Part shown: positions 931-30,557 of the stretch, one piece after another
Layout: every line of letters starts with the position of its first letter
Numbering within the stretch: position 1 is the stretch's first letter
Source of the DNA: Fibrobacterales bacterium
Lineage (GTDB): Bacteria > Fibrobacterota > Fibrobacteria > Fibrobacterales > JAOPTW01
Assembly: GCA_051532035.1 (NCBI GenBank)
Contig: JAOPTW010000001.1
Span: forward strand, 29,041 to 93,040
DNA: 64,000 nucleotides
Direction of reading: 5' to 3'
Notes under the pieces: generated by a model
Told to the model about the DNA's origin: nothing
Seen by the model: only the letters and a program-made list of their open reading frames with translations
The model's database searches: none
Position numbers and translations under genes: made by a program

Positions 931-2259
931 TTACTTAACTGCTACTAATGGCATAAATAGGGCAACATCACTATTTCTAACACCATTCACTGAGTTTACT
1001 CTCATATTATGAAGGTCAGTCCACTCTTCTGATGGGAGTAGTTTCTGAGTCGCTTGTGAGCGATTGTTCTGAATTATAATATCTTGATCTTTAAGCTTGA
1101 GAAGCTGATCTTCAATTGCCCAACCATTTTCACTGTTTTCTATCACTCCTTGTAAGAAACCAAGGGTTGCGGGTTTCCAGCACATGATATCTGAGCCCGA
1201 TATCGAACGGGTAGTACAAGCAAGAAACCCTGCAAACAAAAAGGTACTCTCTGCACCTTCTGAAGCATGAATTTGAGCAAGAACTTCAAGGAGCGCCGAG
1301 TCTTTGGGTTGTACAAAGAGGGGAGTATTGTGCTTATGAGAAAGAACGCTTGCTTTGTCGATAAGCTCAGTAAAACTTGCATCGACCTCATCAATAATTG
1401 TTATTGATGTAAGTGTCTCAGAATAGTCTGTTAAAAGCTCTTCAAGAGCCTCAAAATGGTTTTCTATGGTGAGTTCAGAAATCAGTATGATATTCTGTTT
1501 ATTGCGTGCACGAGTCTTCTTAATAAGTTTATTGAGGGTAGTGCACCACCCAGCAATTTCTAAGAGTTGATCATTCTTAAAGAGTGCTTGTGTGCTCTGT
1601 TCGATAAACGATTCAAGTTGAGTTATGACCTCTTTTGCACTTTCAGTGAGGAGCTTATAGCCTGGCTCTGAACCTGCAACTGAGTCAACAAAATTCTGGG
1701 CAGGGCTATTGCTTGCAGATGCAGTATTAACTTGGCCAAGTATGGCATTAATGGTGTCATCATGAGATGTTGTTGATTGCGGCGCTATGTCGGGTATAGA
1801 GGGTTTTACTATATCAAACATTGCATTGATAATATCTTCTTTTGTAGAACCTTGGAGCTGAATTGCAGTGAGGTCGCTGTTAAAAGTCTCAAAATCTATA
1901 GTTCTATTGAGGGCGTCTTTGCATATTGCAAGTGCTGCTCTCGTTTGGTTCAGTAGTGGTATGTCAAGATTTAGTGGTTTTGTTGTTGCTATCTCTCTTC
2001 CGGTAACTACAACAGATCCAAAAAGATCGCCACTATAGAGTGGGGTCTCTACGTTACAAGAAATAGGTATGGTTGCCGAGAGGCACCCTTCGATTGAACC
2101 TAGTGTTTCGTTGTTAACGACAATAGGAGAGAAGGATGAAAAGGAGCGTGGTAATACAATAGCATGGTGCGCTTCTGTAATATCATTATTTACTTTCTTA
2201 GCGGATGTCGACGGGTTAGTTGAAACACCGGTCGTGACAAAAGTTTCTTCAATTTTCAT
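931..2259 (-). CDS. Diverged T6SS sheath-like protein (TssC/VipB-like C-terminal half, possibly TssB-like N-terminus)
   Basis: Manual alignment to TssC of this window: LFKNDQLLEIAGWCTTLNKLIKKT vs IFHNETFQKLESSWRGLKFLVDRT; ENGW vs DNGW; RNSDVALF vs KNSDYACF. Confidence 0.6.
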   Translation of the reverse strand: MKIEETFVTTGVSTNPSTSAKKVNNDITEAHHAIVLPRSFSSFSPIVVNNETLGSIEGCLSATIPISCNVETPLYSGDLFGSVVVTGREIATTKPLNLDIPLLNQTRAALAICKDALNRTIDFETFNSDLTAIQLQGSTKEDIINAMFDIVKPSIPDIAPQSTTSHDDTINAILGQVNTASASNSPAQNFVDSVAGSEPGYKLLTESAKEVITQLESFIEQSTQALFKNDQLLEIAGWCTTLNKLIKKTRARNKQNIILISELTIENHFEALEELLTDYSETLTSITIIDEVDASFTELIDKASVLSHKHNTPLFVQPKDSALLEVLAQIHASEGAESTFLFAGFLACTTRSISGSDIMCWKPATLGFLQGVIENSENGWAIEDQLLKLKDQDIIIQNNRSQATQKLLPSEEWTDLHNMRVNSVNGVRNSDVALFMPLVAVK

Positions 2260-2267
2260 AGAAGATC

Positions 2268-2867
2268 CTATTTTTCGCTAGTAATTGTCAGGTCATCTTG
2301 AATTGGTGCTAATTGAGTAGTGGTTTCATTAAAGAAAAAGAGGTATACAAGTCCAGCTGCGCCTGCAGCACCAAGAACACCACCTGCTATTTTAAGTCCA
2401 TTGCCAGAAACAACAGATGCTGATGATGATTGAAAAAACTCTTCAGAGATCATAGTGAGGTTTTTACTGATACCACCATCTACATAGTTCTGTGCAATAG
2501 TCACCGTTTTCCCTGCAGTTACATCAAATAGCTCACAATGTATCGTAATAGCCCCGTCTTTCTTTTCTATAGATGGGATAATGAGATAATCAGTTTCAAG
2601 AGCTGTTCCGAGCTCTTTCTTACAACTCGCTTCACAACGAGTAGGAACCATAACGCCTTTACGTTCGAGCATCGAGTCACGTTTACGAAGACTCATGACG
2701 GTCACTGCGTCATTTACGGTCAAAATGGTGATAAATCGTTCTTGAATATCTTCGATAACAGCAGTATTTTCAATACCTTGAACATCAAAGTCAAGTACCG
2801 ATGCAGTTGGTGCATCGGCAAAAAGAGCTGAAGCTGTTAAAGTAAGTGCTATGAGTAATGAACGCAT
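2268..2867 (-). CDS. Exported protein with CsgG/TolB-N-like domain and C-terminal TM helix
   Basis: Likely start is ATG 2867 (MRSLLIAL..., GGAG RBS). Signal peptide, 'CEASCKKELGTALETDYLII' pattern, Gly/Ala-rich C-terminal TM segment. Confidence 0.6.
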   Translation of the reverse strand: MRSLLIALTLTASALFADAPTASVLDFDVQGIENTAVIEDIQERFITILTVNDAVTVMSLRKRDSMLERKGVMVPTRCEASCKKELGTALETDYLIIPSIEKKDGAITIHCELFDVTAGKTVTIAQNYVDGGISKNLTMISEEFFQSSSASVVSGNGLKIAGGVLGAAGAAGLVYLFFFNETTTQLAPIQDDLTITSEK

Positions 2868-3097: not shown

Positions 3098-3703
3098 TTG
3101 GGAATATTATTAGTGTGCGCTATTGCTTTTTCATTATTTTTTATTGGGTGTCCAAAGGACCTTAAAACGGTCGGTACTGTTGATATTAGTAAATTGATTA
3201 CTCAAAAGGATCTTGCGGAGATGGGGTATGAGAAAGCGGTTGATTCGCTTTTGGGGGAGATTGTTACGGTTTCTGGGTTAAAACACATAAGTGTAACAGG
3301 TGATGTAGGTATGGTAAAAGAACGTAATATGTGTGATCAATACTTTTATATGGCAGATGAATATAATAAAAATTTTCGACCAGTAAAAATAAGCGGATAT
3401 ACGACAGCAATTTCAGGGCTATTTAATTTGAATAGTAATCAGATTAAAGGAATCTTTAGCCATTCAAAAAATGTTTCCACATCTATGGATGTGGAGGAAC
3501 CTACATTTTTTAAGCAAGATGTATGTGATCCTGGGCCAAATAATCCAGAGCCATATAAGAATACTCCAGAATTTACTCGTGAAACAAATACTAATATCAT
3601 AAATAGCCCTGACTTGATCGTGACGGGAAAAATTGTTGAAATCCATGGGAAGCCTGGGAAAAATATCACCCTTTCCATTCGAGCGATAGGTATTAGTTAT
3701 TAG
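3098..3703 (+). CDS. Hypothetical lipoprotein (candidate immunity protein)
   Basis: TTG start after GGAGG; hydrophobic signal ending in lipobox-like FIG-C; converges on the 998 aa gene. Confidence 0.7.
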   Translation: MGILLVCAIAFSLFFIGCPKDLKTVGTVDISKLITQKDLAEMGYEKAVDSLLGEIVTVSGLKHISVTGDVGMVKERNMCDQYFYMADEYNKNFRPVKISGYTTAISGLFNLNSNQIKGIFSHSKNVSTSMDVEEPTFFKQDVCDPGPNNPEPYKNTPEFTRETNTNIINSPDLIVTGKIVEIHGKPGKNITLSIRAIGISY

Positions 3704-3721: not shown

Positions 3722-3763
3722 AAAATAAAGTGCTATGGGATTCATCCCATAGCACTTTATTTT
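3722..3763. terminator. Bidirectional terminator (20-bp perfect inverted repeat)
   Basis: AAAATAAAGTGCTATGGGAT-tc-ATCCCATAGCACTTTATTTT, overlapping the stop codon of the 998 aa gene. Confidence 0.85.
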
Positions 3764-6753
3764 TGCACACTTATTACAAAATCTGAACCTTCTAACAGGG
3801 TAAAAGCTTTTGAAGTAGCTTTAGTAAGGTTTTGATCTCCACAGAGTTGAAAGAGTGGATAAACTTTACATTCTGTACTTCCCTCATCCCAATCTGTAAC
3901 ATCATTTTTATCGATTACAAGAGAACCATAGATTTGTTGACCGATAAGAGTTGTGTCTGCTAATTTGTATAAATTCCAATGATTGCCTTTAACTTTTATG
4001 TTGCCGTCCATCCAGCCAATGTTTTCTTCTCTCAATTTAACCCAAATCTGTTTGTCTAGATAGTTATTGATTTGGATATTGTATGTTATAAATTTATTTG
4101 AGTGAAGTATATGTGAATTCACTTTTACTTCTGGTTTAGAAATGCTTAAATGTTCATTAAATAATGAAATCTCATTCTTCTTTCCAGGTTCCTTAATTTG
4201 AGGGGCAACCTTAAACACATTGTCGTCATGGCCCTTGAAGAAATCGTGATTGGCACTAAGTTCAAAGAGAGATATTATGTTTTTATCATCATCAGTCTGT
4301 TGGACTTCTTCAGTCTCTCCATCTTTATCAACTAGCTTATCCAAAGTAAATTTAATATGGCAAACTAATGCCCATTTTCCTTTATTAGGTTCAGCACATT
4401 CTTCAACAACTAATTTTAAGTCATCAAGGTATTCTAAATTAGCTCCATTAGATGGAATAACTTTCAGTAACCCTTTTGCATCATCAAGTCCAGGTTTGTC
4501 ACAAACATCTAATGTTTGAAGCTCAAAGGAGGTCCACTCACCAATAACAATAGAATCTTTAGCTCCTTCTGAAAATCCGATATTTTTTCCAAATTTAGAT
4601 TCATAAAACATGATTTCTTTTTTAGGTAATTCAATTCTATCCATAAAGGGGAGTGAAAGATACGATTCATCTCCAAAAACTATACGGTCTTTATTAACAT
4701 CATATAATTTACCGGTAAGGAAGTTATATTGAAGTTGTAGATACGAGAGCTGAAAACAAAATTTACCATCTATTTGAAGTGATGCTGTTGGGTCCCAATC
4801 GAAATCAGCTTCACCATCTTTTGTCGACCACTCTAGGGAGAAAGAAATCCCTGCACTTTTTGTGAGGCTCGCTTGTACGTATGCCTTCACGGCAAGTGCT
4901 TCAAGAAGGTCTTGTAATGGAGCAAGTAAATCCTGTTCGCCATTGTCTTCACCAAAAGTGTCATCGCCATTGGCATCTTTAAGAGAAGCTATTTCACTTG
5001 CAGCCATTGTCCAAACAGCTTGAAGAATGACATCTAAACTTATTTTTCCTTCGCCGGAAATGCCTATGCTAAAGGTATGCTTTGTGCCACCATCATCTTC
5101 ATCTTTCTGATCGTAGCTCACCTTAAATTTAATTTCTGCACTAGCACTGAGTTTAACTTGAAAGTTCAGAAAACCAAAAAGTATCAAGCCACATGGCTGT
5201 GGGAAAACTTTTTTTGACTTGCCTTCGAAAATACTTAATTCAACGCCAAAGGTTGTAGAGTTATCCTTAGTTGTATCACTCTTTAACTTGTTAAGTACTT
5301 TCTTAAAGTAGGTATCGCCATCTTGGCTGGTCATTTTCATTTCATCAGAAAACTCATTACCAATATTTTTAAGTAATGGCCAAAAGTATCCTTTCTTTTT
5401 AGTACCGACCTGCCTCATACCTTTTGCTAAAGCAAGAGATTCTGTTTTTGTTTTAGAAACAAACTCTTTGTATTTGAAATCCGGCCCTAGAATGCCAGCT
5501 TTAATTGCTGCTTTATATGCATGACCGAGAACTTCTGTTAACTTTTCAAAATTTTCGGCTTCTTCAATCGTTTTCTTTATTGAGGTAAAGTTATCAAAAC
5601 CTGCAACAGCATAGGCTGCAAGTATTTCTGCAGCTCCAACATTGTCAATAAGAAAATCAATAGTTTTCAAACCTTTTTGCAATTGCTTTCTATCTTTGCC
5701 CTTCGCTGCCATCTTTGCTTGTGCGAAAAGGAGAACACCACTAAAAACTGATACAGCAGTGGAGATACTGAGAAGTGATACCCAATTGATTTCTTTGGGC
5801 TCAGCGGCTTTATATGAGCTAGGTGTGATTTTATTAATGAGTTGTATTGACTCCTTAGGGATTAAGGCAATAAGCATTAGATTTTTGTTGCCGCTAATGA
5901 TTCTATCACGCCTCCATGTATGATTTTGGTAAGTTTGCGGATTATTTCTGTCATTTCTAATGGGGTCTAAGTTATTCATATTGGTCATTAGGGCATCATT
6001 GTCCATTTCAACCAACATATTAGACTTGAAATTTGATTCAAAGTCGTAGTCTGCGTTTCGTGCCCAAATTTTTAAATAACAACCAGCGGTATAATCATTT
6101 GGATTATATTTTTCACCATATTTTTCATGTATCTTTTTAAGACGTTCTGCTTGCCCTTTTTGAGAGTGATCATTGCGAACATCAACATAAAATTTATATT
6201 TTATTACACCGTCAGTTTCTGTATCTACTAGAATATCTTGGGTAATTTGCTTATTTTCAGTATCATGTCTACGAGATACAAGTTTTTGGTCTGCTCCATT
6301 AATTTCACCAAAAAAGAATCCAATTCTAGGGAAATCATCAACTACCCAACCATTTTCATCAACCGCTTTACCAATAGAAGGGGGTTGTAAAAAAGACCAT
6401 ACTTCTGCATTAGGCCATGTTTCCGCTCTGCCTGGAAGGTACGATCCTCCAGGGGTGATTTCTAGAATAACCCACTGTCTTACGGAGTTACAAAATACAC
6501 CAGAATGCTTATTCTTTCCACTATACTGGAGGCTTGAATTATTTTCAATTACGAGTGTAGGTTTGTTATCATCATCTTTGTCTGTTTCAACTTCAAGGTA
6601 ATCACCAATCTCTTTTTTGTATTCATCCGAAAAATCAAGTTGTGGATTTTCATGCGTTTTATCAAATGATTGTTCGGTGTCAGTCCAGTAAATTCTTACA
6701 CCCTTCCAGCTTTCTTGGGAGGTGTTTATATTTTTAAATGCTTTAGATGTCAT
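3757..6753 (-). CDS. Large hypothetical protein, candidate T6SS cargo effector
   Basis: 998 aa ORF, no signal peptide, central hydrophobic helix, beta-rich middle region; last gene of the DUF2169-PAAR operon. Confidence 0.6.
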   Translation of the reverse strand: MTSKAFKNINTSQESWKGVRIYWTDTEQSFDKTHENPQLDFSDEYKKEIGDYLEVETDKDDDNKPTLVIENNSSLQYSGKNKHSGVFCNSVRQWVILEITPGGSYLPGRAETWPNAEVWSFLQPPSIGKAVDENGWVVDDFPRIGFFFGEINGADQKLVSRRHDTENKQITQDILVDTETDGVIKYKFYVDVRNDHSQKGQAERLKKIHEKYGEKYNPNDYTAGCYLKIWARNADYDFESNFKSNMLVEMDNDALMTNMNNLDPIRNDRNNPQTYQNHTWRRDRIISGNKNLMLIALIPKESIQLINKITPSSYKAAEPKEINWVSLLSISTAVSVFSGVLLFAQAKMAAKGKDRKQLQKGLKTIDFLIDNVGAAEILAAYAVAGFDNFTSIKKTIEEAENFEKLTEVLGHAYKAAIKAGILGPDFKYKEFVSKTKTESLALAKGMRQVGTKKKGYFWPLLKNIGNEFSDEMKMTSQDGDTYFKKVLNKLKSDTTKDNSTTFGVELSIFEGKSKKVFPQPCGLILFGFLNFQVKLSASAEIKFKVSYDQKDEDDGGTKHTFSIGISGEGKISLDVILQAVWTMAASEIASLKDANGDDTFGEDNGEQDLLAPLQDLLEALAVKAYVQASLTKSAGISFSLEWSTKDGEADFDWDPTASLQIDGKFCFQLSYLQLQYNFLTGKLYDVNKDRIVFGDESYLSLPFMDRIELPKKEIMFYESKFGKNIGFSEGAKDSIVIGEWTSFELQTLDVCDKPGLDDAKGLLKVIPSNGANLEYLDDLKLVVEECAEPNKGKWALVCHIKFTLDKLVDKDGETEEVQQTDDDKNIISLFELSANHDFFKGHDDNVFKVAPQIKEPGKKNEISLFNEHLSISKPEVKVNSHILHSNKFITYNIQINNYLDKQIWVKLREENIGWMDGNIKVKGNHWNLYKLADTTLIGQQIYGSLVIDKNDVTDWDEGSTECKVYPLFQLCGDQNLTKATSKAFTLLEGSDFVISVQK

Positions 6754-6771
6754 AAATTGTCCAAGTAAACA

Positions 6772-7920
6772 TTAACGTTTTTTCATATTCGGTTCCGTAT
6801 ATGTGAAGGAACCAGTAATATATTTATGGTCTGTCCCATCTGATATATCTTTATCGCGTTTCCCATCAAGACTAGTAGAGTCCTGTAGCATGTCGCCAGG
6901 GTGGACGGCTGCTTTCCCATTGTAAAAGAAGGTTTCGCCTTTTATACCCCATGTTGCGCTGTTAAACCTACATGGTAGAACTTCAAAAATATCATCTGGA
7001 TTTTGAAGTTCCTTGTCTATATACCATCTTTCAGGCTGTTTGGGATTATAGGCCGTAAATTGTTTAGGGTTGTCAAATGGGTCTAAGATTTTCGTAAAAT
7101 CACTATAGAGAGTAATTGCAAATAAATCGAATGGATAGTAGTAGGTACTGCCACTTAAAAAAGGCAGTCTCGTATCAGGGTACTGATCTTTATACAACTC
7201 ATAGAGTAAATGTGGAAGAGGGTTATAGTCATCTGTCCACGATGGAATCTGCAACTCTACCCCTTCTTCTAAAGGCTTTTTAAAATCATCACTTAATACA
7301 TCTTTGTTGAATTCAAAAAGAGGTATAGCTGAAGGAAACCCCCATGAGTATGCTATTGCATTAAGGTTTTCTCCTTTTTGAGTAATATGAGTCAATGGTA
7401 AAATTGAAAAAGAATACCAAGGATGACTACATTTATATTTACTCCACCAATCATTTCTAAAAATGGTGTCAGCCCAAAAAACGCCTTCAAATTTTGTGTC
7501 AAATGTATATCCGTCATTTTCTGGTTCATCGATTGAATATGTCATTCCTTCATAATAATCAAGTCGTTTTAATTTTCGAATATCATATTCTTCATCAGGA
7601 TGAAAGGGGATTGGAGAGAGGTTACCTTCGGCATCTAGCTCTTGGTCTGAAGCTCCTTTAATGATCATATATTTAGAGGGCATTAAATTAGGGTTATTAT
7701 CGGATTCATTCTCGGGGGCATTGAAATGTTTAACTGCAAGATCACACATGTAGTCATAGTTTAGTGAATATGCTCCTAATAGGGCTGCACCAAATCCTTT
7801 TTCGTCCTCAATCTCTGTTAATATCCTTGCAGCGTATTTTATAGTAAATTCAGGAATTATTTTAAAACTGTTTTCATAGCCTGACCATATTCGATTTTCA
7901 GTTTGAAAAAAATCTGACAT
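6772..7920 (-). CDS. Hypothetical protein with internal LysM-like motif
   Basis: HITQKGENLNAIAYSWGF...LFEFNK...LEEGVELQIP resembles LysM; start overlaps the PAAR gene stop. Confidence 0.55.
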   Translation of the reverse strand: MSDFFQTENRIWSGYENSFKIIPEFTIKYAARILTEIEDEKGFGAALLGAYSLNYDYMCDLAVKHFNAPENESDNNPNLMPSKYMIIKGASDQELDAEGNLSPIPFHPDEEYDIRKLKRLDYYEGMTYSIDEPENDGYTFDTKFEGVFWADTIFRNDWWSKYKCSHPWYSFSILPLTHITQKGENLNAIAYSWGFPSAIPLFEFNKDVLSDDFKKPLEEGVELQIPSWTDDYNPLPHLLYELYKDQYPDTRLPFLSGSTYYYPFDLFAITLYSDFTKILDPFDNPKQFTAYNPKQPERWYIDKELQNPDDIFEVLPCRFNSATWGIKGETFFYNGKAAVHPGDMLQDSTSLDGKRDKDISDGTDHKYITGSFTYTEPNMKKR

Positions 7921-9008
7921 TACTCTTCCTCCGGTAACACTTCAATAGTTGCTTGACCAGGAGGTACATCCTCTAATTCTATCTTCCCATCTCCGTCAGT
8001 TGTGCCTTCTACTATAGCGCCGGTTGCAAAATGGACTTTTACCCTTCTCTCTGCAATAGGTGTATCTTTTGGGTCAAGTACTGTGGCAGTAAATATTGCG
8101 GTAATTTTAACTGCAGGTGCAACTGCAATTAAATGTTCTGCAATTACATAAGCGTTTAAACCTGATAATTCAATATCATCATTACCTATTACATCGAAAA
8201 TATGATCCTCAGTCAAAGTCCACTCAACCTCAACAGCCTCACCAGATATCTCAGCATCAATAGTCTCGAGTACATGTTGATCTTTATTATTGACCAGAGC
8301 CATAATCTGAACCTTACACGGTCCATCCTCAAATCCAGGCGCCTCACAAGTAATTGTAACTGCTTCATCCTGTTGTACCGGATCAGAACCAATCTCCGCA
8401 TTACACAAATCCTTAACTTTAATCTCAACACTTCCAGCCTCAGCATACCCTTCATAGTGTGCTTCACCCTCAGAATTACTCGTTCCAATAAGCTCTTCAC
8501 CAGCAGGATCAGTCATAGTAAAGGGAACACCATTAACTGGTTTACCGGCTGCATCTAAAAATTCTACATCAACAATGTGAAGTTCAGTAGGCTCTGTAAG
8601 CTCTTTTACTTCCATGGCAGTTATGCCGCCCGGGCCTTTCGTCGCGGCTTTAGCAGCGCTTGCAGCAGCGGCTGCGGCACCACCGCCTCCACCTCCGGCA
8701 CCAGGGCCGATAAGTACGGTCATCTCACCAAGGATTATGGTTGATGGGGGGCCAACACAGACTGCCATATCGCCCATTACTGCTGCTGGCATTTTACCAA
8801 TGAGTACGGTTGGGGAACCGGGTCCACTGATAGGGCCACCAACGTGGGGGATAGGGGCAGGCGCAGGTGTGGCCATCGGACACATATGCATATCTGTTAA
8901 CCGGGCTGCGGGCATTTTTCCGATCATTACTGTCGGACATCCTGGGCCACTGATCATACCGCCGTGCGCGGTAGAATCCATGAGTCGTGCGGCTGGTTTA
9001 CCGGCCAT
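7920..9008 (-). CDS. PAAR-domain spike protein with C-terminal extension (two transthyretin-like modules)
   Basis: PAARLMD / PAARLTD / PAAVMGD motifs, Gly/Ala linker, then two 'LD..G/D.P....GT...G' modules. Confidence 0.9.
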   Translation of the reverse strand: MAGKPAARLMDSTAHGGMISGPGCPTVMIGKMPAARLTDMHMCPMATPAPAPIPHVGGPISGPGSPTVLIGKMPAAVMGDMAVCVGPPSTIILGEMTVLIGPGAGGGGGGAAAAAASAAKAATKGPGGITAMEVKELTEPTELHIVDVEFLDAAGKPVNGVPFTMTDPAGEELIGTSNSEGEAHYEGYAEAGSVEIKVKDLCNAEIGSDPVQQDEAVTITCEAPGFEDGPCKVQIMALVNNKDQHVLETIDAEISGEAVEVEWTLTEDHIFDVIGNDDIELSGLNAYVIAEHLIAVAPAVKITAIFTATVLDPKDTPIAERRVKVHFATGAIVEGTTDGDGKIELEDVPPGQATIEVLPEEE

Positions 9009-10083
9009 TGAACACCTCCATACCGAATTTAAATTCAGAAAAATTTTTCATAGACTCCACACCTTCATAAAAGCTTGAAGCACGCCAGACCAGGGTAAGT
9101 TGATTGGTCTCTTTGTGGATCTCTACGGTCTGAATAACAGTATCCATAATTTGAAGTCCGGTGCCGACATTAAGCCATGCCTTCATAGTAATACCGGGAA
9201 GTTTACATTCAAATTTGGGATGTTCTGCATCCATGTACATCATTCTGATTGTTTCGTCGCCCTTGAGATACGGAAGTCGCATCCCTGTTTGGGCACTGTT
9301 GTAGAATAAGGGATTGATTAAAGGGGTTGGGTCGCCGAGGGACTGGGGGTCAGCACCATTAGCCAGCTGTTCTTTTCTGGCCGCTTCATTAGCGATGTGT
9401 TGTTCCATAGGTAGTCCTGCGTGTAAATATCGTGGGTAGCTATTTTTTGCTACAGGCCCTAACCCTACAGGGTCAGGTGCTTTTTTCCAATTATTATAAT
9501 CTTTGAGAATCAGTTTCTCAGGGGTCAGTAAGTTATAAGGGTCTTCTAGGTTAGGGAGCTCAAGATCATGTAGAGAGTCAGCTTTCTCTTTAACAACAAA
9601 GCCTTTCCCTGCGGGATTTTTCTGATAGGTATATTGCACACCCTCATCCGACTTATCATCGATGCCACCATAGGCTAAGCCAGAGTGGATAGGCATCTCA
9701 TCAAATAATTCGGGTTCGGTAAATTCAAATCCAAAGGGTGTTTTATTTACCTTTCGGTTTCCAAAAACTCTAATCTGTTTTATAAAGTTGCCAATACCAA
9801 CGGCAAGATCAAAATACTTGGCTCGCTTCCCATTGGGAGCTATTGCCTTTCCTTTAAACAGAACGTCAGTTGCAGGCTTAAATGCCACAAGATCTGATTC
9901 ATGTTTAATGGGATCAGTAATGGGGTTGTCACCATAATACTCATCACTATCGTGAAAAGGAATAGGTGATTCTTTGTCGATTTGAGCAATAAGACCATGT
10001 TCGAAATTGAATGTCTCTTTCCCAAGCACTGACAATATGGGCGTACCGTCTGGTGATGTTCCTGGGATTATTCTCGTAAACAT
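8998..10083 (-). CDS. DUF2169 family T6SS adaptor, copy 1
   Basis: HESDLVAFKPATDVL, AYGG, NPAGKGF, LPNLEDP, LTLVWRA motifs; overlaps the PAAR start. Confidence 0.88.
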   Translation of the reverse strand: MFTRIIPGTSPDGTPILSVLGKETFNFEHGLIAQIDKESPIPFHDSDEYYGDNPITDPIKHESDLVAFKPATDVLFKGKAIAPNGKRAKYFDLAVGIGNFIKQIRVFGNRKVNKTPFGFEFTEPELFDEMPIHSGLAYGGIDDKSDEGVQYTYQKNPAGKGFVVKEKADSLHDLELPNLEDPYNLLTPEKLILKDYNNWKKAPDPVGLGPVAKNSYPRYLHAGLPMEQHIANEAARKEQLANGADPQSLGDPTPLINPLFYNSAQTGMRLPYLKGDETIRMMYMDAEHPKFECKLPGITMKAWLNVGTGLQIMDTVIQTVEIHKETNQLTLVWRASSFYEGVESMKNFSEFKFGMEVFNGR

Positions 10084-10950: not shown

Positions 10951-11469
10951 ATGCCAAAATATCTAATTGCAATCACTATCGCATTCTTATTCATAGGGTG
11001 TGCGGGAACTCCAAAAGTACGAACGGTACATGTTGAAAAAGAGTTTTCGAGAGCTGGTGGTAAAAATATTAATGAGAAACTTGTCAAATGGCGAGAGATC
11101 AAGAAAGAGAAGCTGAAAGAAGTTGCTGATAGTTATCTCGGTGTCCCGTATCTTTGGGGTGGTAACACACGTAAAGGAATAGATTGTTCTGCATTTATCA
11201 GAGCGGTATTTAAAGAGGTCTACGATCTTGATATGCCAAGAAGAGCGACCTGGCAGGGCGAATTTGGCGTATTTATATTTAAGTATAATATTCAGCCGGG
11301 TGACTTGGTCTTTTTTGGACCCGATCCAGAAGATATTACTCATGTAGGTCTCTATATGGGAGATGGTAAATTTATTAATGCAACCTCCTCTGGCGGGGTA
11401 AAATACTCAGGCCTCGATGAGAAGTATTGGGCAAAACAGTATCAGTTTGCAAAGCGGTTTGTTTATTAA
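10951..11469 (+). CDS. NlpC/P60 (C40) peptidoglycan endopeptidase lipoprotein
   Basis: Lipobox FIG-C; YLGVPYLWGG...GIDCSAF, QPGDLVFF, THVGLY motifs. Confidence 0.93.
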   Translation: MPKYLIAITIAFLFIGCAGTPKVRTVHVEKEFSRAGGKNINEKLVKWREIKKEKLKEVADSYLGVPYLWGGNTRKGIDCSAFIRAVFKEVYDLDMPRRATWQGEFGVFIFKYNIQPGDLVFFGPDPEDITHVGLYMGDGKFINATSSGGVKYSGLDEKYWAKQYQFAKRFVY

Positions 11470-11836: not shown

Positions 11837-12742
11837 TTAACGTTTGAGTTTTTCTAATTCGCTTTTGAGGTACTGAACCTCTTTCATTAGGAATTCAACT
11901 TTCTCTTCGAGGCTCATATTTGATGAAGGTGTCGATGCTTGATCGTTCATAGATGTTGAACTTCTCTTACGGTTCTTTGTAATAGTAAGAGGCACTCCAT
12001 ATTTCGTTAAAATATCATCAAATTTTGATGTACCAGATCCTGAACCATATACGACAGACTTAACGGCTTTATTTATTTTACGGAGAAGCTTAGGAAATTT
12101 TTTATTTACTCCCATAACATACTCTTCTTCAGTGAGAGTAAGGTCAAGTGTTTTAACCCGTGGATTAACAGTTGCTTCGTAGTCTAGGATAACTTTGTCA
12201 GCGATGATTGCATCAACTTCATTATTTGCAAGTAAATCATAGGTTTCAGACATTTTAGTGACCAACTCAACCTTTGCTTTCTTAATAAACTTTTTAAGAA
12301 AGGTATTACCTGTTGATCCGGCTACTGCTGCCACATATTTACCGTTAAGGTCAATGGCAGAAAAGACGCGATTATCTTTTTTCTTAGTCATTATTCCAAG
12401 ACCAGTCTTATAGTAAGGCATAGTATAAATAATGCCATCTTTTTTATTTTCTTTCACAGAAGAGATAAGGAGGTCAATACGGTCTTTCTTGAGTTTCTTT
12501 TTACCCTCTCTCAGGTTAGAAATCTCGATAATTCTAAAGCGTACTCCAAGTTTTGTAGCAATAGCTGCGGCTAATTCATATTCAATACCTTTGAGGGTGC
12601 TCTGTTTCATTTTACCGAAAGGAGCAGTGCTACTGAGCATACCTACTGTTAAAGCATCTTTTCCAATAGCTTTAAAGCTACGGCTTAATACTGGTGAATA
12701 TGAGAGGGCAATAATAATGAGTAAAGAAATCAGGTGTTTCAT
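11837..12742 (-). CDS. Solute-binding protein, family 3 (amino-acid type), with C-terminal coiled-coil tail
   Basis: Likely start MKHLISLL after GGAG; LTVGM..APF, GIEYELAAAIA..LG, YTMPYY, DLNGK.VA...GSTG motifs. Confidence 0.85.
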   Translation of the reverse strand: MKHLISLLIIIALSYSPVLSRSFKAIGKDALTVGMLSSTAPFGKMKQSTLKGIEYELAAAIATKLGVRFRIIEISNLREGKKKLKKDRIDLLISSVKENKKDGIIYTMPYYKTGLGIMTKKKDNRVFSAIDLNGKYVAAVAGSTGNTFLKKFIKKAKVELVTKMSETYDLLANNEVDAIIADKVILDYEATVNPRVKTLDLTLTEEEYVMGVNKKFPKLLRKINKAVKSVVYGSGSGTSKFDDILTKYGVPLTITKNRKRSSTSMNDQASTPSSNMSLEEKVEFLMKEVQYLKSELEKLKR

Positions 12743-12765
12743 TGTGTTCTCCATTTCTTTTGAGT

Positions 12766-14430
12766 CTATTTAAGTTCAGTTACACATCTAAAGCCAATAA
12801 ATTTTGCACCTTTTGATGAGGCCATATCGACGAGACGGTCTGGGTTAGTGCAACGCTCAGAAGGCATATTGTATGAACAACCTGCGTGAAAGGCAGTTGA
12901 AGCACTTTCACCGACTCCCTCTTCCACAACCCATTCTGAAACATTACCCAAAATGTGATTGAGGGTATTGCCTTGGTTAATTGAGGTAACTGCTTGAGGC
13001 TTGTCAGTAGAGTTTACAATACTTTTAGGAGCGACACTGGTTGTGCTAAACTCTTTTTTCCACTCTTCTGCTGTGGGGAGGCGTTTGTTTTTCCATTTCG
13101 CATAGGCCATTGCATTTGCATAGCTTACATTCACAACAGGATAGGTTTTATACTCTGGATTTCTAAAATAGTCTTCAATTTCAGGGAAGCCTGGATCAAC
13201 AGGGTAGGTGGTGCGTGTACGGTCACAGAACTCTTTATATTCTGCATTGGTTACTTCTGATTGGTCAAAAATAAGTGCAACTTCAGCATTTTTGGCAGCT
13301 GTTGAGTCGTAGTTAAAGCTAGGAGTGTATTCACCTTGCGTAGCAGGGCGTGACTTAGATTTTTTACCAACAAGATCAAAAGAGAGAGCTGCAGATAGGT
13401 TGAAGCCGAAAAATATTTCAGATTGCTCACCCATTACAGCAAAAGGAACGCCGGCTTGTATTGTGAAGTTGTTTGTTGCATCAAAAATAGCTCCAATTTC
13501 CAAGGCAGCTCTAAATGATTCACTGTCTTTAACAGAACCTGCAGAATCTTGATTTGCTAATGAATAGAACCCATCCAAACCTAAGAAGGGAAGAACTGGT
13601 CCAAGAAGATATCCTGCTTGTAAATGAGCAGTAGCAACACCACCGAGTTGTTTATTGTTATCGTCTAGGTCAGGGAAGTTATATTCGTAACCAACTTGGC
13701 CAAGGAACTCTGCTCCATAAAAACTTTGAAGGGTAATGAGGTCAGCTGCAACAGAGTAGGCATTCGTTGTATGTTCATCTTCATTTTGATCACCATTTGC
13801 AAATTTAAAGTCAACATTTATTGCTGAGTTTATTGGTCGGTGAGTGTATTTAAAGCCTGTGGTAATATCCATTCTTGAAAATGCATTCTCAGCACTATCT
13901 TTGCCAATGGTAGCATAAGGGAGATGTGCATGAAATTCAATGTTCATAGGGAGACCAACGCGAAGGATGATAGGCATCATATATTGTTTACCAAGAGCAT
14001 CATTTGAGTAAGTAGTGTCACCCTTTGCTTCTCCTAGTTTTCCATTATATATGCCAGTTCTATGTTGATAGGCATACCCTAATTCAAACTGAAGGTAGCC
14101 TGGAGCTACAGAAAGATTTTCATTGAGGAATGATTTATTACGGTAAAGAAAGTCATGCTCTATTTTTTCTGTCTCATCAAGGTCGATGTTCACCTTATAT
14201 TTGGCAGACTTAAAAATAGGCTTCACGGGTTTGAGAGTAATATTATGTGTGCCCAAAACCATTTTGTCATTAATATAGGGCGTTACCTCTTGCTCTGTGA
14301 TGTCGTTTAATATTACAGTAGCACTATCAGGGGTAGTGGTTACTTCGAGGGTGCCAAATCGTGGACTTGCAGCAAAAGTTTCTAGGGCAAGTAATGATGC
14401 TGTTGCGGTAATTATAGTTATTTTTTTCAC
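12766..14430 (-). CDS. Exported PEGA + putative beta-barrel + FGE-sulfatase (SUMF1/TagR-like) domain protein
   Basis: Likely GTG start at 14430. GTLEVTTTPDSATVILN (PEGA); alternating amphipathic strands; EVTNAEYKEF, YPVVNVSY..A.AYAKW..KRLPTAEEW, GNVSEW, IGFRCV (FGE-sulfatase). Confidence 0.8.
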   Translation of the reverse strand: MKKITIITATASLLALETFAASPRFGTLEVTTTPDSATVILNDITEQEVTPYINDKMVLGTHNITLKPVKPIFKSAKYKVNIDLDETEKIEHDFLYRNKSFLNENLSVAPGYLQFELGYAYQHRTGIYNGKLGEAKGDTTYSNDALGKQYMMPIILRVGLPMNIEFHAHLPYATIGKDSAENAFSRMDITTGFKYTHRPINSAINVDFKFANGDQNEDEHTTNAYSVAADLITLQSFYGAEFLGQVGYEYNFPDLDDNNKQLGGVATAHLQAGYLLGPVLPFLGLDGFYSLANQDSAGSVKDSESFRAALEIGAIFDATNNFTIQAGVPFAVMGEQSEIFFGFNLSAALSFDLVGKKSKSRPATQGEYTPSFNYDSTAAKNAEVALIFDQSEVTNAEYKEFCDRTRTTYPVDPGFPEIEDYFRNPEYKTYPVVNVSYANAMAYAKWKNKRLPTAEEWKKEFSTTSVAPKSIVNSTDKPQAVTSINQGNTLNHILGNVSEWVVEEGVGESASTAFHAGCSYNMPSERCTNPDRLVDMASSKGAKFIGFRCVTELK

Positions 14431-14453
14431 TGTTACTATTCTCTTCGTTTTAT

Positions 14454-14469
14454 AGTGATAAATGTCAAT
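14454..14469. promoter_or_regulatory. CRP/FNR-like site, copy 3
   Basis: AGTGA-taaatg-TCAAT in the divergent region upstream of tssK. Confidence 0.45.
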
Positions 14470-14545
14470 AAGCACTTCAAAAATAGTATAAAACGAGTAA
14501 ATTTAATGTTAAATTCGCAAATCATCTATATACGGTTTAACTTTT

Positions 14546-15865
14546 ATGATAAAGAAAATTTCTTGGTTAGAGGGAATGGCACTGCTTCCCCATCATTTTC
14601 AGCAGGCAGAAAAGTATTATGAATCACTTATTTCTTCTAAAATTATTGCGCTTAATCCAAATTCATTTGGCTTTACTTCCTTAACTGTAGACTCTTATGC
14701 CCTTTCAAATGGGGTGTTTTCTATTCAAGAGTGCAAAGGGATTTTCCCGAGTGGTCTCTTTTTTGAGTCTAATGACGTGGAAAATCTTGTCGAATCCCGT
14801 TCAGTAGGTGAGATGTTCCCTGCAGAGAAAGAATCTCTTGATGTCTTTCTTGCTGCACCACTCCAAGAAGAAACTAAAGCAAATGTCACTGATGACAAAC
14901 AATCAAGCTCTGCGCTTTTTATAAAAGATCAAAAAGCGGTTCCCGATGTTAATACCGGATCTAACTCAAAAGCGGTCACTTATTCAAAGTTAAACTTGAA
15001 AATTGTGTTTGAAGGTGAACAAATAACGGGGTATGAGGTCTTAAAAGTTGCAGAACTTAAAAGAAACTTACAGGCTCAAATTGCGGTGAGTGATACATTT
15101 ATGCCTATTACTTTGGCGCCGATAGCATCTCCGTATGTGCAGCAGAGTCTGAAAAAGGTCATTGATAAAGCTACTGAGAAACAGACGTGGCTTATCGGTC
15201 AAAATTTGGTGATGGGCGGAGAGAATCTATCCAGTTGCCTGCTTCTTTTGACACTGAATCAGTTTTTACCGGTGCTGAATAGTTATTATATAAATTCAAA
15301 TACATCGACAGAGCAACTCTATATTAAGCTTTTGGAGTTTGCCGGAGCCCTTTGTACTACCAATCCTGTAGTAAAATCTAATGAACTCCCTATTTATAAT
15401 CATGCAAGTCAGCAGCACTGCTTTGAAAAGCTGTTTGATGGACTTAAAGCACTGCTCGAAGCATCAGTGGACCTACGTTATGAATTGACAAAAATGAAAC
15501 AGAGCACAGCAGGTGAGTATCAGGGTGATTTAACCAATGCAAACCCATCAATATACTCTGAAGTATTTCTTGCCATTGACTCTCCACTTGATACCCAGAC
15601 ATTGGTAACTCAAGTGAAGCAGATTGGTAGAGCGGCGCCAATCGCTAAACTCAAGAGCCTTGTTGTATCGGCTCTTCCGGGAATTGATATTGATTATGTT
15701 CTCGATCCACCACTTACAATTAGCCCTAAACCAGAAAAAACCTATTTTAAACTATCCAATACTCATCCGCTGTGGAATGAAGTGGTTGCAACTCGAATGT
15801 TTGGGCTGCATCTTCCTCCTGCAATTACTGTTACTGCAGTTGAAATTATTGGACTTAAATCTTAA
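14546..15865 (+). CDS. tssK: T6SS baseplate subunit TssK
   Basis: N-terminal WLEGMALLPHHFQQ; LVVSALPGI; first gene of the T6SS operon. Confidence 0.93.
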   Translation: MIKKISWLEGMALLPHHFQQAEKYYESLISSKIIALNPNSFGFTSLTVDSYALSNGVFSIQECKGIFPSGLFFESNDVENLVESRSVGEMFPAEKESLDVFLAAPLQEETKANVTDDKQSSSALFIKDQKAVPDVNTGSNSKAVTYSKLNLKIVFEGEQITGYEVLKVAELKRNLQAQIAVSDTFMPITLAPIASPYVQQSLKKVIDKATEKQTWLIGQNLVMGGENLSSCLLLLTLNQFLPVLNSYYINSNTSTEQLYIKLLEFAGALCTTNPVVKSNELPIYNHASQQHCFEKLFDGLKALLEASVDLRYELTKMKQSTAGEYQGDLTNANPSIYSEVFLAIDSPLDTQTLVTQVKQIGRAAPIAKLKSLVVSALPGIDIDYVLDPPLTISPKPEKTYFKLSNTHPLWNEVVATRMFGLHLPPAITVTAVEIIGLKS

Positions 15866-15885
15866 AAGAGTATAAAAGGCAGACA

Positions 15886-16503
15886 ATGAATAGTTCTTTT
15901 ATAAAGCACGCTGCTCCCTTAATAAATATGGGGGTTCAGATTCAAAGCATTCAATTTGAGTCGCCAGCAAAGTTGCAAGAAGATATCCTTGAAAAAACCG
16001 AAGCATTTGTCGAAGCTGCAACAGCAATGGGGAAGAGTGGAGGTGAAATTGAAGAGGCGAAATATGGCCTCTTATCTTTTCTTGATGAACTCATTTTTAA
16101 AAACAGTAGTATTGGGTATGAATGGCTTGAATATCGCCTTATGATGAAGGTATTTAACGATCAGCTCGCTGGTGAAAGCTTTTTCACAAAATTTGATACC
16201 TATGTGAAGGATGATACGAAACGAGATTTAGCTGAATTCTATGGGGTATTGATGCTTCTTGGTTTTCAAGGAAAGTTTCAGCTCGAGGGCCTTGAAGGGC
16301 TCCAGCTTAAAATTAAAGAGGTAACAGATCTACTGTACCCTAATGCAGAAGGGGCGGTCCCTGACCTCTCAAAATTTGCAACCATAGCTCCAGGGGCGCT
16401 CCCTCGTGAAAAAAGTGGAAAGTCGTTTCTACTCTACGCATTTGGACTGGTAATTCTCTCGGGAATTGCATATATGGCACTTCTTACACTCGCTCAGGTA
16501 TAA
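15886..16503 (+). CDS. tssL: T6SS membrane protein TssL (DotU), no OmpA domain
   Basis: AKYGLLSFLDE, DQLAGESFF, LLGFQGKF, C-terminal TM helix. Confidence 0.9.
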   Translation: MNSSFIKHAAPLINMGVQIQSIQFESPAKLQEDILEKTEAFVEAATAMGKSGGEIEEAKYGLLSFLDELIFKNSSIGYEWLEYRLMMKVFNDQLAGESFFTKFDTYVKDDTKRDLAEFYGVLMLLGFQGKFQLEGLEGLQLKIKEVTDLLYPNAEGAVPDLSKFATIAPGALPREKSGKSFLLYAFGLVILSGIAYMALLTLAQV

Positions 16504-16520
16504 CAGAAATAGGAAAATTA

Positions 16521-19500
16521 ATGAAAGCGATAAAATCACTCTTTTTTTGGATCTGCGTAGGTATCATAGCTCTTGCTGTAGGTTTTTACTTTACGGCACC
16601 TATGATGGGCCTCGAAGACTCTCTCTATAACATACTCATTTCCGCTGCTATTGCAGTCCTTGGGCTCTCAATAAGTTTTATCATAAAAATGAAAAAGCAT
16701 TATAACTCTATTCAAAAAAAGAAGCCTCAGTCAAATGCTGCTGAGTGGGAGACGAGTTGGCAAAAGCCTTTGGCTGATGAAACCAAAGAAATTCTCAAGC
16801 GTATTCAAGAGGTGTATAAAAAGACCAATGTTAGTATCGAGAAAACGAAATTCTTTCTGGTTATTGGACAAAAAGGCTCAGGTAAAAGTACCCTTATTCG
16901 TGAAAGTGGCCACCATATGCGCTATATCTTTCCGACAGCTCGCGATAAACAACAGAGAAGAAAAATATTTTTTAATTGGAGTGTTTCTGATAATGCTGTC
17001 TATATAGAAGCACCGGCTGATTACCTTGCAAATGGTGATAAAGTAGCCCAAGAACTCCTCTTTTTATTAGAGCTCCTCAAAGATGAACCGAAGAAGAAAA
17101 CTCTCGATGGTATCATTGTAACAGAGAAAGTACACGATTTAGCAGATAAGGATAATGCTAAGGCTCGTGCTCAAGTTAATAGAAAAACGGTTGAAGGAGT
17201 TATGGCTCAGATTCAACTTGAACTTCCTGTCTATGTTGCGCTCACCAACCTCGACACCCTTCCTGGCGCTAAATTATATTGTGATGCCCATGAAGAGAGT
17301 TTTTTAAATCAAAGTTTTGGTGTTTCTATTAAGCACTCTGAAGCAAAGGATACCCGGTCAGTTTTTGATAAACGGTATGGTGAGCTCCTTGATGGGCTCT
17401 ATGATAATCAGATGTTTAGTATGTATTCTCAACAGAAAAAAGGCATTGCTCCTGTTGAGACATATGCATTTGTTCGCGGCCTTGAAGAACGTCGAGCTAC
17501 TATTGGTGACTATGTAGAGATACTCTGTAAAAAAGGCTTGACTAAAGAAATAAGTTATTTTCGCGGACTCTATTTCACTGGTGTTGAATCAGTTGCAAAA
17601 GATCAGCCACAAGCAGCACCGGCTGCACCTGCACTCGACCCTTTTGGAGGGGCTGCTTTTTTTGAAGACGAAGGCGCGGTTTCTGCGGCAGCACCAGAAA
17701 TGAGTGCTATTGAAGAGCCGGAGCCGGTACTTGGTGGTCTCAGTTATTTTGCACATGCTTTTCTCGCGTGGGTTGAGGGTGAAAAAGAACTTGTTCGCTA
17801 TCCAAAATATCGTCAAAGTAGTATGTCTCGCTCTGCTGCGCTCATCTCATTTTTATTGTTTCTTGGGGCTGCAGGCGTTGCAGGGTATGGAGTATATGGT
17901 TTTACGATGAGTAAGGTGTTGCTGAATAGATGGGAAGAACTCGTCAATGATGCACGTCGGCTTAAGTGGAGTCAACCCAAAACAATTATTCGAGAATTTT
18001 CAAAATATGATGGATTGCGCTTGGCAATTGAAGATATCGAAGAGAACCGATCGCTCACAATTGCTCCAGGCTTTTATCCCGATGGTAAGATTTTACCGAA
18101 AGCAGAGAAAAAACATATTGTACTTTCTCATGCCTTAACGCGAAATTGCCTTAAGACTCTCGAAAAAGACCTCAATAATAAATTGACTGCAGGGGTCAGA
18201 GATTCTGAGAGAACTGAAGTCTATAACGATTTTAGATTGTATGCATCATTGACTACAGCAGGGAAGGGACATTATGATAAAATGAATGTTGATTCTGTTG
18301 GTGCGGGCCTTGCAAGAAAGTGGTATAAGCTTTTAGGTATTACCCCATATACTGCTTCACAGCATATTAAAGAGACGCTGCCTTTGAATGCGCGCCTCTA
18401 TGTTCAGTACTTAATCGATGAGCGGGTGCATAAAGGAAGTAAACTCTATGTTGCAAACCCTGCACTTGTTAAAAAGGCACGGAGAGCTTTAGCTGGTGAG
18501 AGTGAAGTTGAAGCTATTTATCAAGCAATGTTAGAGGCGGGTAATAGTGCGCCAGCACTGCGCTTATCTGATCTCGGAGTTGAAGAGAATAGTATTATTG
18601 TAAACTCGGGTGAAATTCCTGCGGCTTATACAAAAGTAATGTACGATTCGGTTATCAAGCCGTTCTTTACTAAAACAAATAGTGCTCAAGGAGATTGGGT
18701 TTTAGGTAAAGATAAAGAGACGTCGACGGTAAGTAAGGATTTGGAAGAGAAAGTGATGACCAAGTATTATCGCGATTATGCCTATACTTGGAGAAGTTTT
18801 ATTAAAAATATTAAGACAAAACGGACCCCAGATCTTCAAAGGCTTTCAGAAAAGCTTATAGCGCTTGCAAGTGCATCTCAAGATGAAACACTACTTGGTC
18901 TTCGGGCGTTTATAGAAAATGTTTCTCGAAATACAAATCTTGTGGTGGACCTATCAGGGGCAAAAAATCTTGTAAATAAAGTGAGTGGTCCTAATAAAAA
19001 GCTGAATAATAAGATGAAAATTGTGCGTCGCTATCAAGATGATATACCGGAATCGATGCTCTCTCCACAAGAGCGACTTGCAAAAAAGTTTAGTGGTTTT
19101 TCAGTACTTACAGGAGAAATTCGGGGCAAAAAGTTCGATGACTATTTTGAGGACCTTGTAAAAACATCAAAATTTTTGATTGAAACTACAGGGAATCCAG
19201 ATGAAGCGGTCACCTTTTTAGGTGAACTTTTTAAAGGAGACCGAAAGAACCCAGCAAATCATGCCTATGCGGCCGCCCAGGCTTATATTGATGAAGTACC
19301 TGCACGTCAGCAAGATCTCCTTAAAAGTACGCTTCTTCTTATTGTAAGAGAGGTTGTTAACTCAGTGGTTTCGTATGCATCGATTGGCTTACAAGAAGAG
19401 TATGAAAAACAGGTAGTAACTAACTATGAGTCCTATTTGCAATCATCTTTTCCGTTTGATCATGAAGAGCGAGAAAAGATGGCATCCCTTGAAGACCTTA

Positions 19501-20117: not shown

Positions 20118-20119
20118 AA

Positions 20120-20135
20120 AGTGATGACCGTCACA
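20120..20135. promoter_or_regulatory. CRP/FNR-like site, copy 4
   Basis: AGTGA-tgaccg-TCACA between tssM and tssA. Confidence 0.55.
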
Positions 20136-20256
20136 CTCAAAGGTGTCGGAATGTAAATTAGAATTAACACTTTCATTTTTATCTTGATAGTTGTTATATT
20201 CTTTCATCATAAGCTGATATTATAAACATTAAGTAAAAAAAGATACGACGAAAATT

Positions 20257-21906: not shown

Positions 21907-21939
21907 ATTTAGAACATAAACTAAAAAGGAGAGAGCGCT

Positions 21940-22464: not shown

Positions 22465-22475
22465 AGGAGAGTATA

Positions 22476-23957: not shown

Positions 23958-24019
23958 AATTAAACTTAAACTTAACCACTAAACACTAACTAAACAAATA
24001 ATTAAAAAAGGATATAAAA

Positions 24020-24487: not shown

Positions 24488-24538
24488 TAACGGCTCATGT
24501 TTTGAATGACCTCTTTTGAGGTCTTTCATCTACATTGA

Positions 24539-24590: not shown

Positions 24591-24607
24591 AATGTGTACA
24601 GAGAACT

Positions 24608-27793: not shown

Positions 27794-27801
27794 AGGAACC
27801 T

Positions 27802-30549: not shown

Positions 30550-30557
30550 GAGGAACT

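Follow-up and report, generated by a model that had tools for sequence, protein, structure and literature searches.

The stretch of DNA analysed here (the window) comprises 64,000 nucleotides of a Fibrobacterales bacterium (assembly GCA_051532035.1, contig JAOPTW010000001.1, positions 29,041 to 93,040) and encodes a single, complete type VI secretion system (T6SS), whose core genes tssK, tssL, tssM, tssA, tssB, tssC, hcp, tssE, tssF, tssG, clpV and vgrG lie at 14546-32711 on the forward strand. The sheath genes tssB (21940-22464; Pfam T6SS_VipA) and tssC (22476-23957; Pfam VipB and VipB_2) are the sole canonical copies in the genome, each of the three Pfam families giving a single match above its cut-off. 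At the left edge of the window, on the reverse strand, an open reading frame (ORF) at 931-2259, with an ATG start and its stop codon at 931-933, encodes a protein of 442 amino acids (P0001) for which we use the name SHL, for sheath-like. The original prediction, made from the sequence, had read it as a second, strongly diverged sheath protein, possibly a fusion of TssB and TssC. Our analysis indicates that SHL is very probably a single-chain paralog of the sheath protomer, made up of a TssB-like part, a flexible linker and a part resembling the TssC N-domain, without the C-terminal gp25-like domain of TssC.

The likeness of SHL to TssC is weak by sequence alone. No Pfam family matches the protein at E<=0.01, which thus scores below the thresholds of PF05943 (VipB) and PF05591 (T6SS_VipA), and no NCBIfam model matches it at E<=1. 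Sequence searches of the PDB with SHL alone and with a profile of three sequences returned chance-level matches only (MarR, E 0.24; glycosylasparaginase, E 0.076), and the ESM Atlas gave no usable match with SHL as the query. Compared with the TssC of the window by BLASTP, SHL yields one high-scoring segment pair (residues 353-436 against 268-363, E 0.057 in a single comparison), which taken alone is suggestive. A phmmer search of 1,835,955,588 representatives found 12 relatives of 114-485 amino acids at E<=1e-3, which together with SHL form a family alignment of 13 rows (A2). A further homolog search with A2 added nothing new, and a search for related loci with A1 returned only a contig of the same genus and one chance-like match. 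Aligned by hhalign with 30 TssC proteins of the same phylum, A2 places SHL residues 187-435 on TssC 46-362 (249 columns, score 27.7, P 0.014); ten column-shuffled and one reversed TssC alignment, used as controls, gave scores of at most 22.0 over at most 78 columns. The profile obtained by merging A2 with the alignment of a sister family (A5, see below) matched TssC at E 1.3e-3 (187-438 on 46-365). The original prediction had pointed to four colinear blocks shared with TssC, and all four recur in the same register across the BLASTP match, which holds blocks three and four, the hhalign alignment and the structural alignment.

It is the predicted fold that makes this likeness secure. The model built from the 13 sequences of A2 has a mean pLDDT of 82.2 and a pTM of 0.76, and its pLDDT falls under 50 only at residues 1-27, 154-168 and 174-199; it replaced an earlier AlphaFold model from three sequences (pLDDT 54.9), for which Foldseek had found no match at E<=1e-3. 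With the new model, Foldseek returned 14 PDB matches at E<=1e-3, all of them T6SS, phage-tail or contractile-injection-system entries, including VipB (3j9g_2) at E 8.8e-6. When the model was compared exhaustively with 48,161 PDB representative chains by VIA-align, ranks 1-27 were all contractile-sheath entries (Z 16.3-10.2) and rank 28 was flagellin at Z 7.3. The eight best chains on closer inspection were TssC/VipB chains of T6SS (Z 16.3-16.9), among them 9n4v_A (Z 16.9, 197 residues, rmsd 2.9, model 233-442 on 90-367) and VipB 3j9g_2 (Z 16.8, 238 residues, rmsd 3.9, model 204-442 on 61-365), and the structure-based identity of SHL with VipB is 13%. Judged by its modelled fold, SHL belongs to the contractile sheath superfamily, with residues 200-442 (934-1662, reverse strand) as the part that resembles the N-domain of TssC (VipB) in both VIA-align and hhalign.

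The end of SHL faces TssC residue ~365, and VipB_2 of the window TssC covers residues 378-489, so SHL stops where the C-terminal domain of TssC begins, as had been noticed from the sequence. Both the C-terminal gp25-like domain (VipB_2) and the C-terminal strand involved in polymerisation are absent from the protein. All 23 homologs of the class in a 24-sequence alignment end at the same place, and the sole longer row is a relative of 539 amino acids from another class (genome G085, locus L118). No second VipB_2 was found in the genome, which is 91.75% complete (best other match E 0.06), so that no split gene visible to Pfam provides the domain that SHL lacks.

The extra N-terminal region, which had been described as roughly of TssB size, proved to be related to TssB by profiles as well. 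From residue ~28 onwards the model aligns with the single-chain sheaths found in phages, pyocins and injection systems (9gts_2A, Z 15.6; 6rao_D, Z 15.4), as would be expected if residues 28-153 (1801-2178, reverse strand) stand for TssB. Searching the whole phylum with A2 yielded three matches (E 5e-5 to 5e-4) to short ORFs, which in genomes G051 and G021 lie just upstream of tssC. Among 329 stop-to-stop frames of at least 100 amino acids from 30 T6SS loci, the 22 best matches of the A2 hidden Markov model (HMM) are all frames that hold TssB, 17 of them at E<1e-3, with HMM positions ~42-158 matching TssB ~55-175. The hhalign comparison of A2 with a TssB alignment gave E 3e-4 (78-152 versus 89-163). 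A sister family of 539-552 amino acids (A5), found via G085, connects further: A2 matches A5 at E 6.6e-10, A5 matches TssB at E 1.9e-5, and the merged A2 and A5 profile matches TssB at E 1.7e-6 with a probability of 90% (26-147 on 30-158).

SHL is under purifying selection and is not decaying. Compared with its ortholog in genome G230 of the same genus (92% identical), it has a dN/dS of 0.036 at a dS of 1.24, which is near saturation; for the same genome pair the ratio is 0.018 for ClpV and 0.12 for PAAR. The TssB-like part, the internal linker and the TssC-like part each stand at 0.033 or less, and the 27-residue N-terminal arm at 0.21. Homologs are 426-506 amino acids long by provisional start calls, and the relatives of SHL are placed in Fibrobacterota. 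The similarity to VipB (Z 16.8) and the selection on the gene, which speaks for function and not for decay, agree with the profiles in upholding the original prediction of a second, strongly diverged sheath-like protein in the form of a TssB-TssC fusion.

The phyletic pattern ties SHL to the T6SS. Across 208 genomes of the class, SHL is found in 25 by the A2 search and TssC in 54 by PF05943; all 25 SHL genomes have TssC, and SHL occurs in none of the 154 genomes that lack TssC. These counts include one unpublished genome (G243), without which SHL stands at 24 of 207 and TssC at 53 of 207 with the same inclusion relations, and no sequence of G243 was used in any alignment. TssC, SHL and a full-length FHA-TM-SLT protein (described below) are each present in the same two of 12 genomes of genus g8 (G044 and G255). 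A ClpV N-domain match is found in all 25 SHL genomes, while the 15 genomes that have TssC and no such match at 1e-10, mostly from one clade, are all without SHL. Genus g53 of family f2 has TssC in 12 of 14 genomes and a ClpV N-domain match (E<=1e-10) in none, and its T6SS may work with a divergent ClpV or with none. Operationally, SHL qualifies as a T6SS accessory (Tag) gene, since in these genomes it occurs only with a T6SS, and not in all T6SS.

Two short conserved elements of SHL lie on flexible segments. Residues 1-27 (2179-2259, reverse strand), with pLDDT below 50, consist of a strand-like motif and a low-complexity tether. The motif, alternating hydrophobic residues followed in family f3 by G-K-D, is kept across families, and the Ser/Gly/Thr-rich tether behind it is highly variable in length. 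By eye, and without a statistic, the motif resembles the N-terminus of TssB in this phylum. TssB of the VipA/VipB sheath donates its N-terminal strand to the inner domain of the neighbouring protomer. The second flexible segment is the internal linker at residues 154-199 (1663-1800, reverse strand), which has low pLDDT and contains a conserved short helix at about residues 166-178 (1726-1764, reverse strand) with the motif [IL]-L-x-Q-[VIM], residues 168-175 being helical in the model. This motif is present in nine of the ten A2 rows that cover the linker, and the family HMM matches the linker helix, without offset, to the one at the N-terminus of canonical TssC proteins from this phylum (E 0.0087 and 0.12, searched over the 329 frames). 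According to the available excerpt of PMC4239648, TssC's N-terminal helix (LLDEIM, ILDSII, LLDEII; Vibrio cholerae, Pseudomonas aeruginosa) docks into the N-domain of ClpV. The ClpV of the window, the sheath-recycling ATPase assigned by Pfam (27802-30549, forward strand), would be the candidate reader of the SHL helix; a complex prediction of its N-domain (A3, residues 1-160) with SHL 150-215 gave ipSAE values of 0.25 and 0.21, under the mark of 0.32, and speaks neither for binding nor against it. The tethers of SHL are rich in Ser and Thr.

SHL lies beside a T6SS only in this genus, where it is the final gene of a short unit and nothing in the base composition near it is unusual. The co-oriented gene upstream (2268-2867, reverse strand) ends 8 nt before the SHL start and encodes a protein of 199 amino acids with a signal peptide, a C-terminal transmembrane (TM) segment and a short Thr-rich tail, as read from its translation and a TM scan. 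This product is 86% identical in G230 with a dN/dS of 0.096; phmmer matched it in G230 only, and no relative was found outside the genus in the 16 loci L051-L066. Contigs from an RNA library are identical to the window at 1210-1361, 1506-1704, 1825-2066 and 2063-2477, the last of which bridges the junction of SHL with the upstream gene. This library is a metatranscriptome of a single sample, the same as the best DNA holder, was available as contigs only and may contain carried-over DNA, so that it gives weak support; the parts of the gene without such contigs (931-1206 and others) are uninformative. A hairpin resembling an intrinsic terminator (834-866, not assigned to a strand), with a 14-bp stem and T runs on both sides, follows 65 nt past the SHL stop and is common to SHL and a convergent adhesin gene. 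The latter occupies positions 1-816 on the forward strand as the C-terminus of a giant adhesin with Big_9/cadherin repeats, whose counterpart in G230 (L066:2061-9170) has 2369 amino acids.

Other lineages show a different membrane-protein partner. The gene order in family f3 is a divergent gene for a TPR protein of ~1100 amino acids, SHL, a gene for a protein with FHA, TM and SLT parts (FHA-TM-SLT), and then the housekeeping genes gap, pgk and tpi. The FHA-TM-SLT protein has 530-570 amino acids and carries the FHA domain at its N-terminus; a single TM segment follows at ~235-280, and an SLT lytic-transglycosylase domain occupies the C-terminal part (for example L053:10646-12343 and orthologs, and L118:13283-14923). 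SHL is followed by it on the same strand, from an overlap of a few bases to a gap of ~60 nt, in 13 of 13 f3 loci that extend far enough (tblastn). By coordinates it lies directly downstream in 21 of the 22 SHL genomes of families f3 and f20 (20 of 21 without G243), the exception being G255, where the two are split by contig ends. The FHA domain retains its GR, SxxH and NG residues, which are the canonical FHA residues with a role in reading phosphothreonine. The FHA-TM half (E<=1e-8) is present in 22 of 32 genomes of f3, four of six of f4 and the one genome of f20, only in genomes with TssC, and its tallies per genus equal those of TssC; the full-length protein is found within g8 in G044 and G255 only. 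A paralog lies ~3.5 kb from clpV in G108 and G248. This family, whose FHA domain is cytoplasmic and whose lytic transglycosylase is periplasmic, is a candidate for a T6SS-dedicated enzyme of cell-wall remodelling. The gene row that begins with the 539-amino-acid sister protein of G085 also encodes a LysM/FecR protein, a CHASE2-Ser/Thr kinase and an FHA-TM-SLT protein. The genome studied here has no FHA-TM-SLT protein, only SLT-only paralogs and a weak FHA match elsewhere, and G235 has SHL alone between dinB and a methyltransferase gene, with FHA-TM-SLT encoded apart. We rejected two further candidates for the neighbourhood: the ~1100-amino-acid TPR gene, which also occurs elsewhere in this genome (27% identity) and is retained in G078, a genome without SHL, is a syntenic neighbour and no partner, and the 255-amino-acid ORF that precedes SHL in L052 is spurious, being a high-GC frame. 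Descent, phyletic pattern and operon partners together link SHL to the T6SS.

The gp25-like C-terminal domain of TssC accepts the strands of neighbouring protomers in the VipA/VipB sheath. The C-terminus of TssC (HsiC) was found to be required for polymerisation of HsiB1C1 and tubule formation, as the available excerpt of PMC3597794 reports. The TssB-like and TssC N-domain-like parts of SHL make up the whole middle and outer body of a protomer, and the inner TssC domain is missing. SHL has one putative donor strand and lacks both an acceptor domain and the C-terminal strand of TssC, so that it could attach to a sheath and could not be extended. Our leading reading, held tentatively and at rather less than even confidence, is that SHL acts at the membrane as a non-polymerising, donor-only protomer that caps sheath ends and carries a handle for ClpV. 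Through the N-terminal TssB-like strand on its long tether, SHL would serve once as a donor, to an acceptor site left free where a TssBC polymer is growing or has broken, or on TssE at the baseplate, and would thereby limit or mark sheath ends as a non-propagating cap. The TssC-type helix in the linker, constitutively exposed, could let ClpV recognise or remove SHL, or let SHL recruit ClpV. SHL would be co-transcribed with the bitopic FHA-TM-SLT protein in most lineages and with the signal-peptide/TM protein here, and these membrane-protein partners suggest that the cap works at the membrane. Strand donation, capping, recognition by ClpV and membrane tethering are what we infer from this anatomy. 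The functions first proposed for the protein, to cap or initiate the sheath or to modulate its assembly or recycling by ClpV, would fit a protomer that has lost the polymerisation domain and kept a TssB-like strand and a helix resembling the ClpV motif. A more specific version appears unlikely: SHL would have evolved out of the protomer of the very polymer that it caps, its strand would plug the acceptor site left open in the last TssBC ring or in stray oligomers and stop their growth, the membrane partner would arrest and anchor the distal sheath end in the manner of TagA, and ClpV would strip SHL off.

Several observations weigh against an end-capping protomer of this kind. The likeness of the N-terminal strand to the TssB N-terminus is a short pattern that carries no statistic, and the N-terminal motif of the window TssC is rather unlike the SHL linker helix, so that a single groove of ClpV may fail to read the two of them. 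The partner varies: f3 and f20 have FHA-TM-SLT, this genus has a different membrane protein and G235 has none, so that no partner is universal. The genomes behind the co-occurrence counts are related, which makes these counts non-independent, and SHL is dispensable for a T6SS, as 29 of the 54 genomes with TssC lack it. One of them, G078 of family f3, has a T6SS and only 152 bp between the flanking genes where SHL sits elsewhere. Its locus (L120, G078:C8, 5335-7079) shows the same arrangement of TPR and FHA-TM-SLT genes and represents a clean absence or a loss of SHL.

Two alternatives to the capping role deserve mention. SHL could be a decoy or adaptor for ClpV only, a soluble protomer body that permanently displays a TssC-type helix and titrates ClpV, keeps it ready or recruits it, as TagJ does in other systems, without docking to sheath ends. 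The conserved helix in a disordered linker, which aligns with the TssC helix given as the ClpV site in the excerpt of PMC4239648, would suit such a role, as would the ClpV N-domain found in 25 of 25 SHL genomes and the lack of SHL in all 15 TssC genomes without such a match, mostly of one clade. This explanation leaves the tethered N-terminal strand and the operon with a membrane protein unaccounted for, however, and the linker motif differs from that of the window TssC; we consider it improbable as the whole function of the protein. We give no better chances to SHL as an envelope-coupling scaffold, which would connect the baseplate or sheath with a membrane partner, FHA-TM-SLT in other lineages or here the signal-peptide/TM protein, and so place or license wall remodelling or assembly, possibly in a phospho-dependent way. 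It draws on the adjacent, same-strand FHA-TM-SLT gene in 13 of 13 loci, on the retained GR, SxxH and NG residues and single TM segment of its product, on the restriction of the FHA-TM half to TssC genomes of f3, f4 and f20, and on the kinase in the G085 row together with the Ser/Thr-rich SHL tethers. Against it stand this genus, which has no FHA-TM-SLT protein, G078, which has one and no SHL, and G235, which encodes the two apart.

The genes between SHL and the T6SS core bear on a third explanation. A divergent row on the reverse strand (3757-10083) contains a DUF2169 gene, a PAAR gene (7920-9008) and two unknown ORFs of 382 and 998 amino acids, the longer with a TM-like stretch. DUF2169 and PAAR are 97% and 88% identical in G230 (locus L066) and the two next ORFs only 29% and 25%, so that the segment at 3757-9008 looks like a swapped effector cargo module. 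A lipoprotein-like ORF on the forward strand (3098-3703) stands between the SHL unit and this row; at the same position G230 has two copies, ~27% identical, and a role as immunity gene for the neighbouring cargo is possible. SHL lies in this genus ~1.5 kb beyond the last cargo ORF of the DUF2169-PAAR-cargo row, which might suggest an adaptor or chaperone for the effector island. We disfavour this as very unlikely, since the opposite-strand gene intervenes, SHL is 92% identical in G230 where the cargo ORFs are 25-29% identical, and no effector island is found near SHL in other families. Least probable of all, SHL would be what is left of a decaying tssBC duplicate or would serve a separate contractile device as its sheath. 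This could explain the very low similarity to TssC and the lack of a Pfam match, but conflicts with the dN/dS of 0.036, with full-length proteins that share one end point in four families, with the lack of the polymerisation domain and with the failure to find a second tube, baseplate or VipB_2 gene in the genome.

Further genes around the T6SS core are recorded here for completeness of the locus. Between the PAAR row and tssK lie an NlpC/P60 hydrolase gene (10951-11469, forward strand), a gene for an SBP_bac_3 protein (11837-12754, reverse strand) and one for a protein of 569 amino acids with FGE-sulfatase and PEGA domains (12766-14475, reverse strand); these three are possible T6SS-associated envelope or regulatory genes. 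A second DUF2169 gene (32720-33784, forward strand) directly follows vgrG, so that the system has two DUF2169 adaptors. At 36036-38232 on the forward strand, an unknown ORF of 169 amino acids is followed by genes for an enzyme of the MbnB/TglH/ChrH family and a DUF2063 protein, and the latter two look like a modification pair of a RiPP (methanobactin-like) pathway.

Read as a donor-only capping protomer, SHL can be set beside known sheath proteins and tail paralogs. Canonical TssB/TssC (VipA/VipB, HsiB1/HsiC1; 3J9G, 5N8N, 5URW, 9N4V) has the same fold and order of elements, and SHL appears to keep a TssC-type N-terminal helix. SHL differs in being one chain instead of two, in lacking VipB_2 and the C-terminal strand, in having a much longer tether after the N-terminal strand than TssB, and in escaping detection by PF05591 and PF05943; its TssB-like part is fused, whereas TssB (PF05591) is a separate protein of ~170 amino acids. 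A second TssC of Rhizobiales, ImpD (TssC40), is required for Hcp secretion in Agrobacterium and is, like SHL, a non-redundant additional sheath-related protein within a single T6SS, as far as the excerpt of PMC3702570 describes it. The ImpD-type homolog of Rhizobium (L119:8468-9856, 462 amino acids) contains VipB and VipB_2 and no TssB part and is, unlike SHL, a nearly full-length TssC; hhalign aligned it with A2 over 54 columns only (P 0.036). The fused TssB part and the missing VipB_2 rule out SHL as a second TssC of this type.

The nearest kin of SHL in kind are unnamed fused VipA-VipB proteins, represented by ESM Atlas clusters of 514-619 amino acids with PF05591 and PF05943. As in SHL, TssB and TssC are joined in a single chain associated with T6SS, mostly without VipB_2, which is listed for one of the three best clusters and there on 25% of its members. 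The clusters have 56-281 members from Pseudomonadota and Myxococcota, and the 539-amino-acid protein of G085 scores 0.96 against them by features. SHL is shorter than these fusions and has no Pfam match. The G085 branch aligns partway into the C-terminal region of TssC (to TssC 428), which SHL does not, and the sequence kinship between SHL and the Atlas fusions runs only through that branch, so that common descent with them is no more than possible. The sheath paralogs of injection systems (Afp2-4 and Pvc2-4) resemble SHL in their single-chain fold, which aligns from ~28 (6rao, 9qgl, 6j0n; Z 14.7-15.4), and share with it and with tail terminator and cap proteins the idea of a paralog at a special position of the tail. 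The strand-exchange domain, which SHL is without, is retained in Afp2-4 and Pvc2-4, and these are incorporated into the sheath. TagA stops the sheath at its distal end; it has an unrelated fold and offers a possible functional analogy only, with no homology claimed. The same holds for TagJ (HsiE1), described in the excerpt of PMC4239648 as a recruiter of ClpV, whose TPR/ImpE fold is unrelated to SHL.

The dynamics of the T6SS sheath are at present explained by TssB, TssC, TssA, TssE, ClpV and a few accessory proteins, to which a third conserved protein derived from the sheath would add a new regulator, be it of assembly, of length control or of recycling. A search of the full-text literature, with subscription-only papers outside its scope, found no paper on natural TssB-TssC fusions or truncated sheath paralogs, and SHL probably belongs to a larger class, as yet undescribed, of fused paralogs that do not polymerise. 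Such paralogs can diverge beyond the reach of Pfam and are therefore under-counted. The operon of SHL with an FHA-TM-SLT protein that tracks the T6SS points to a possible link between events on the side of the sheath and remodelling of the cell wall. If the more specific version of the capping role, judged unlikely above, were correct, fused TssB-TssC paralogs in other phyla would represent a widespread, overlooked class of regulators of sheath length and recycling.

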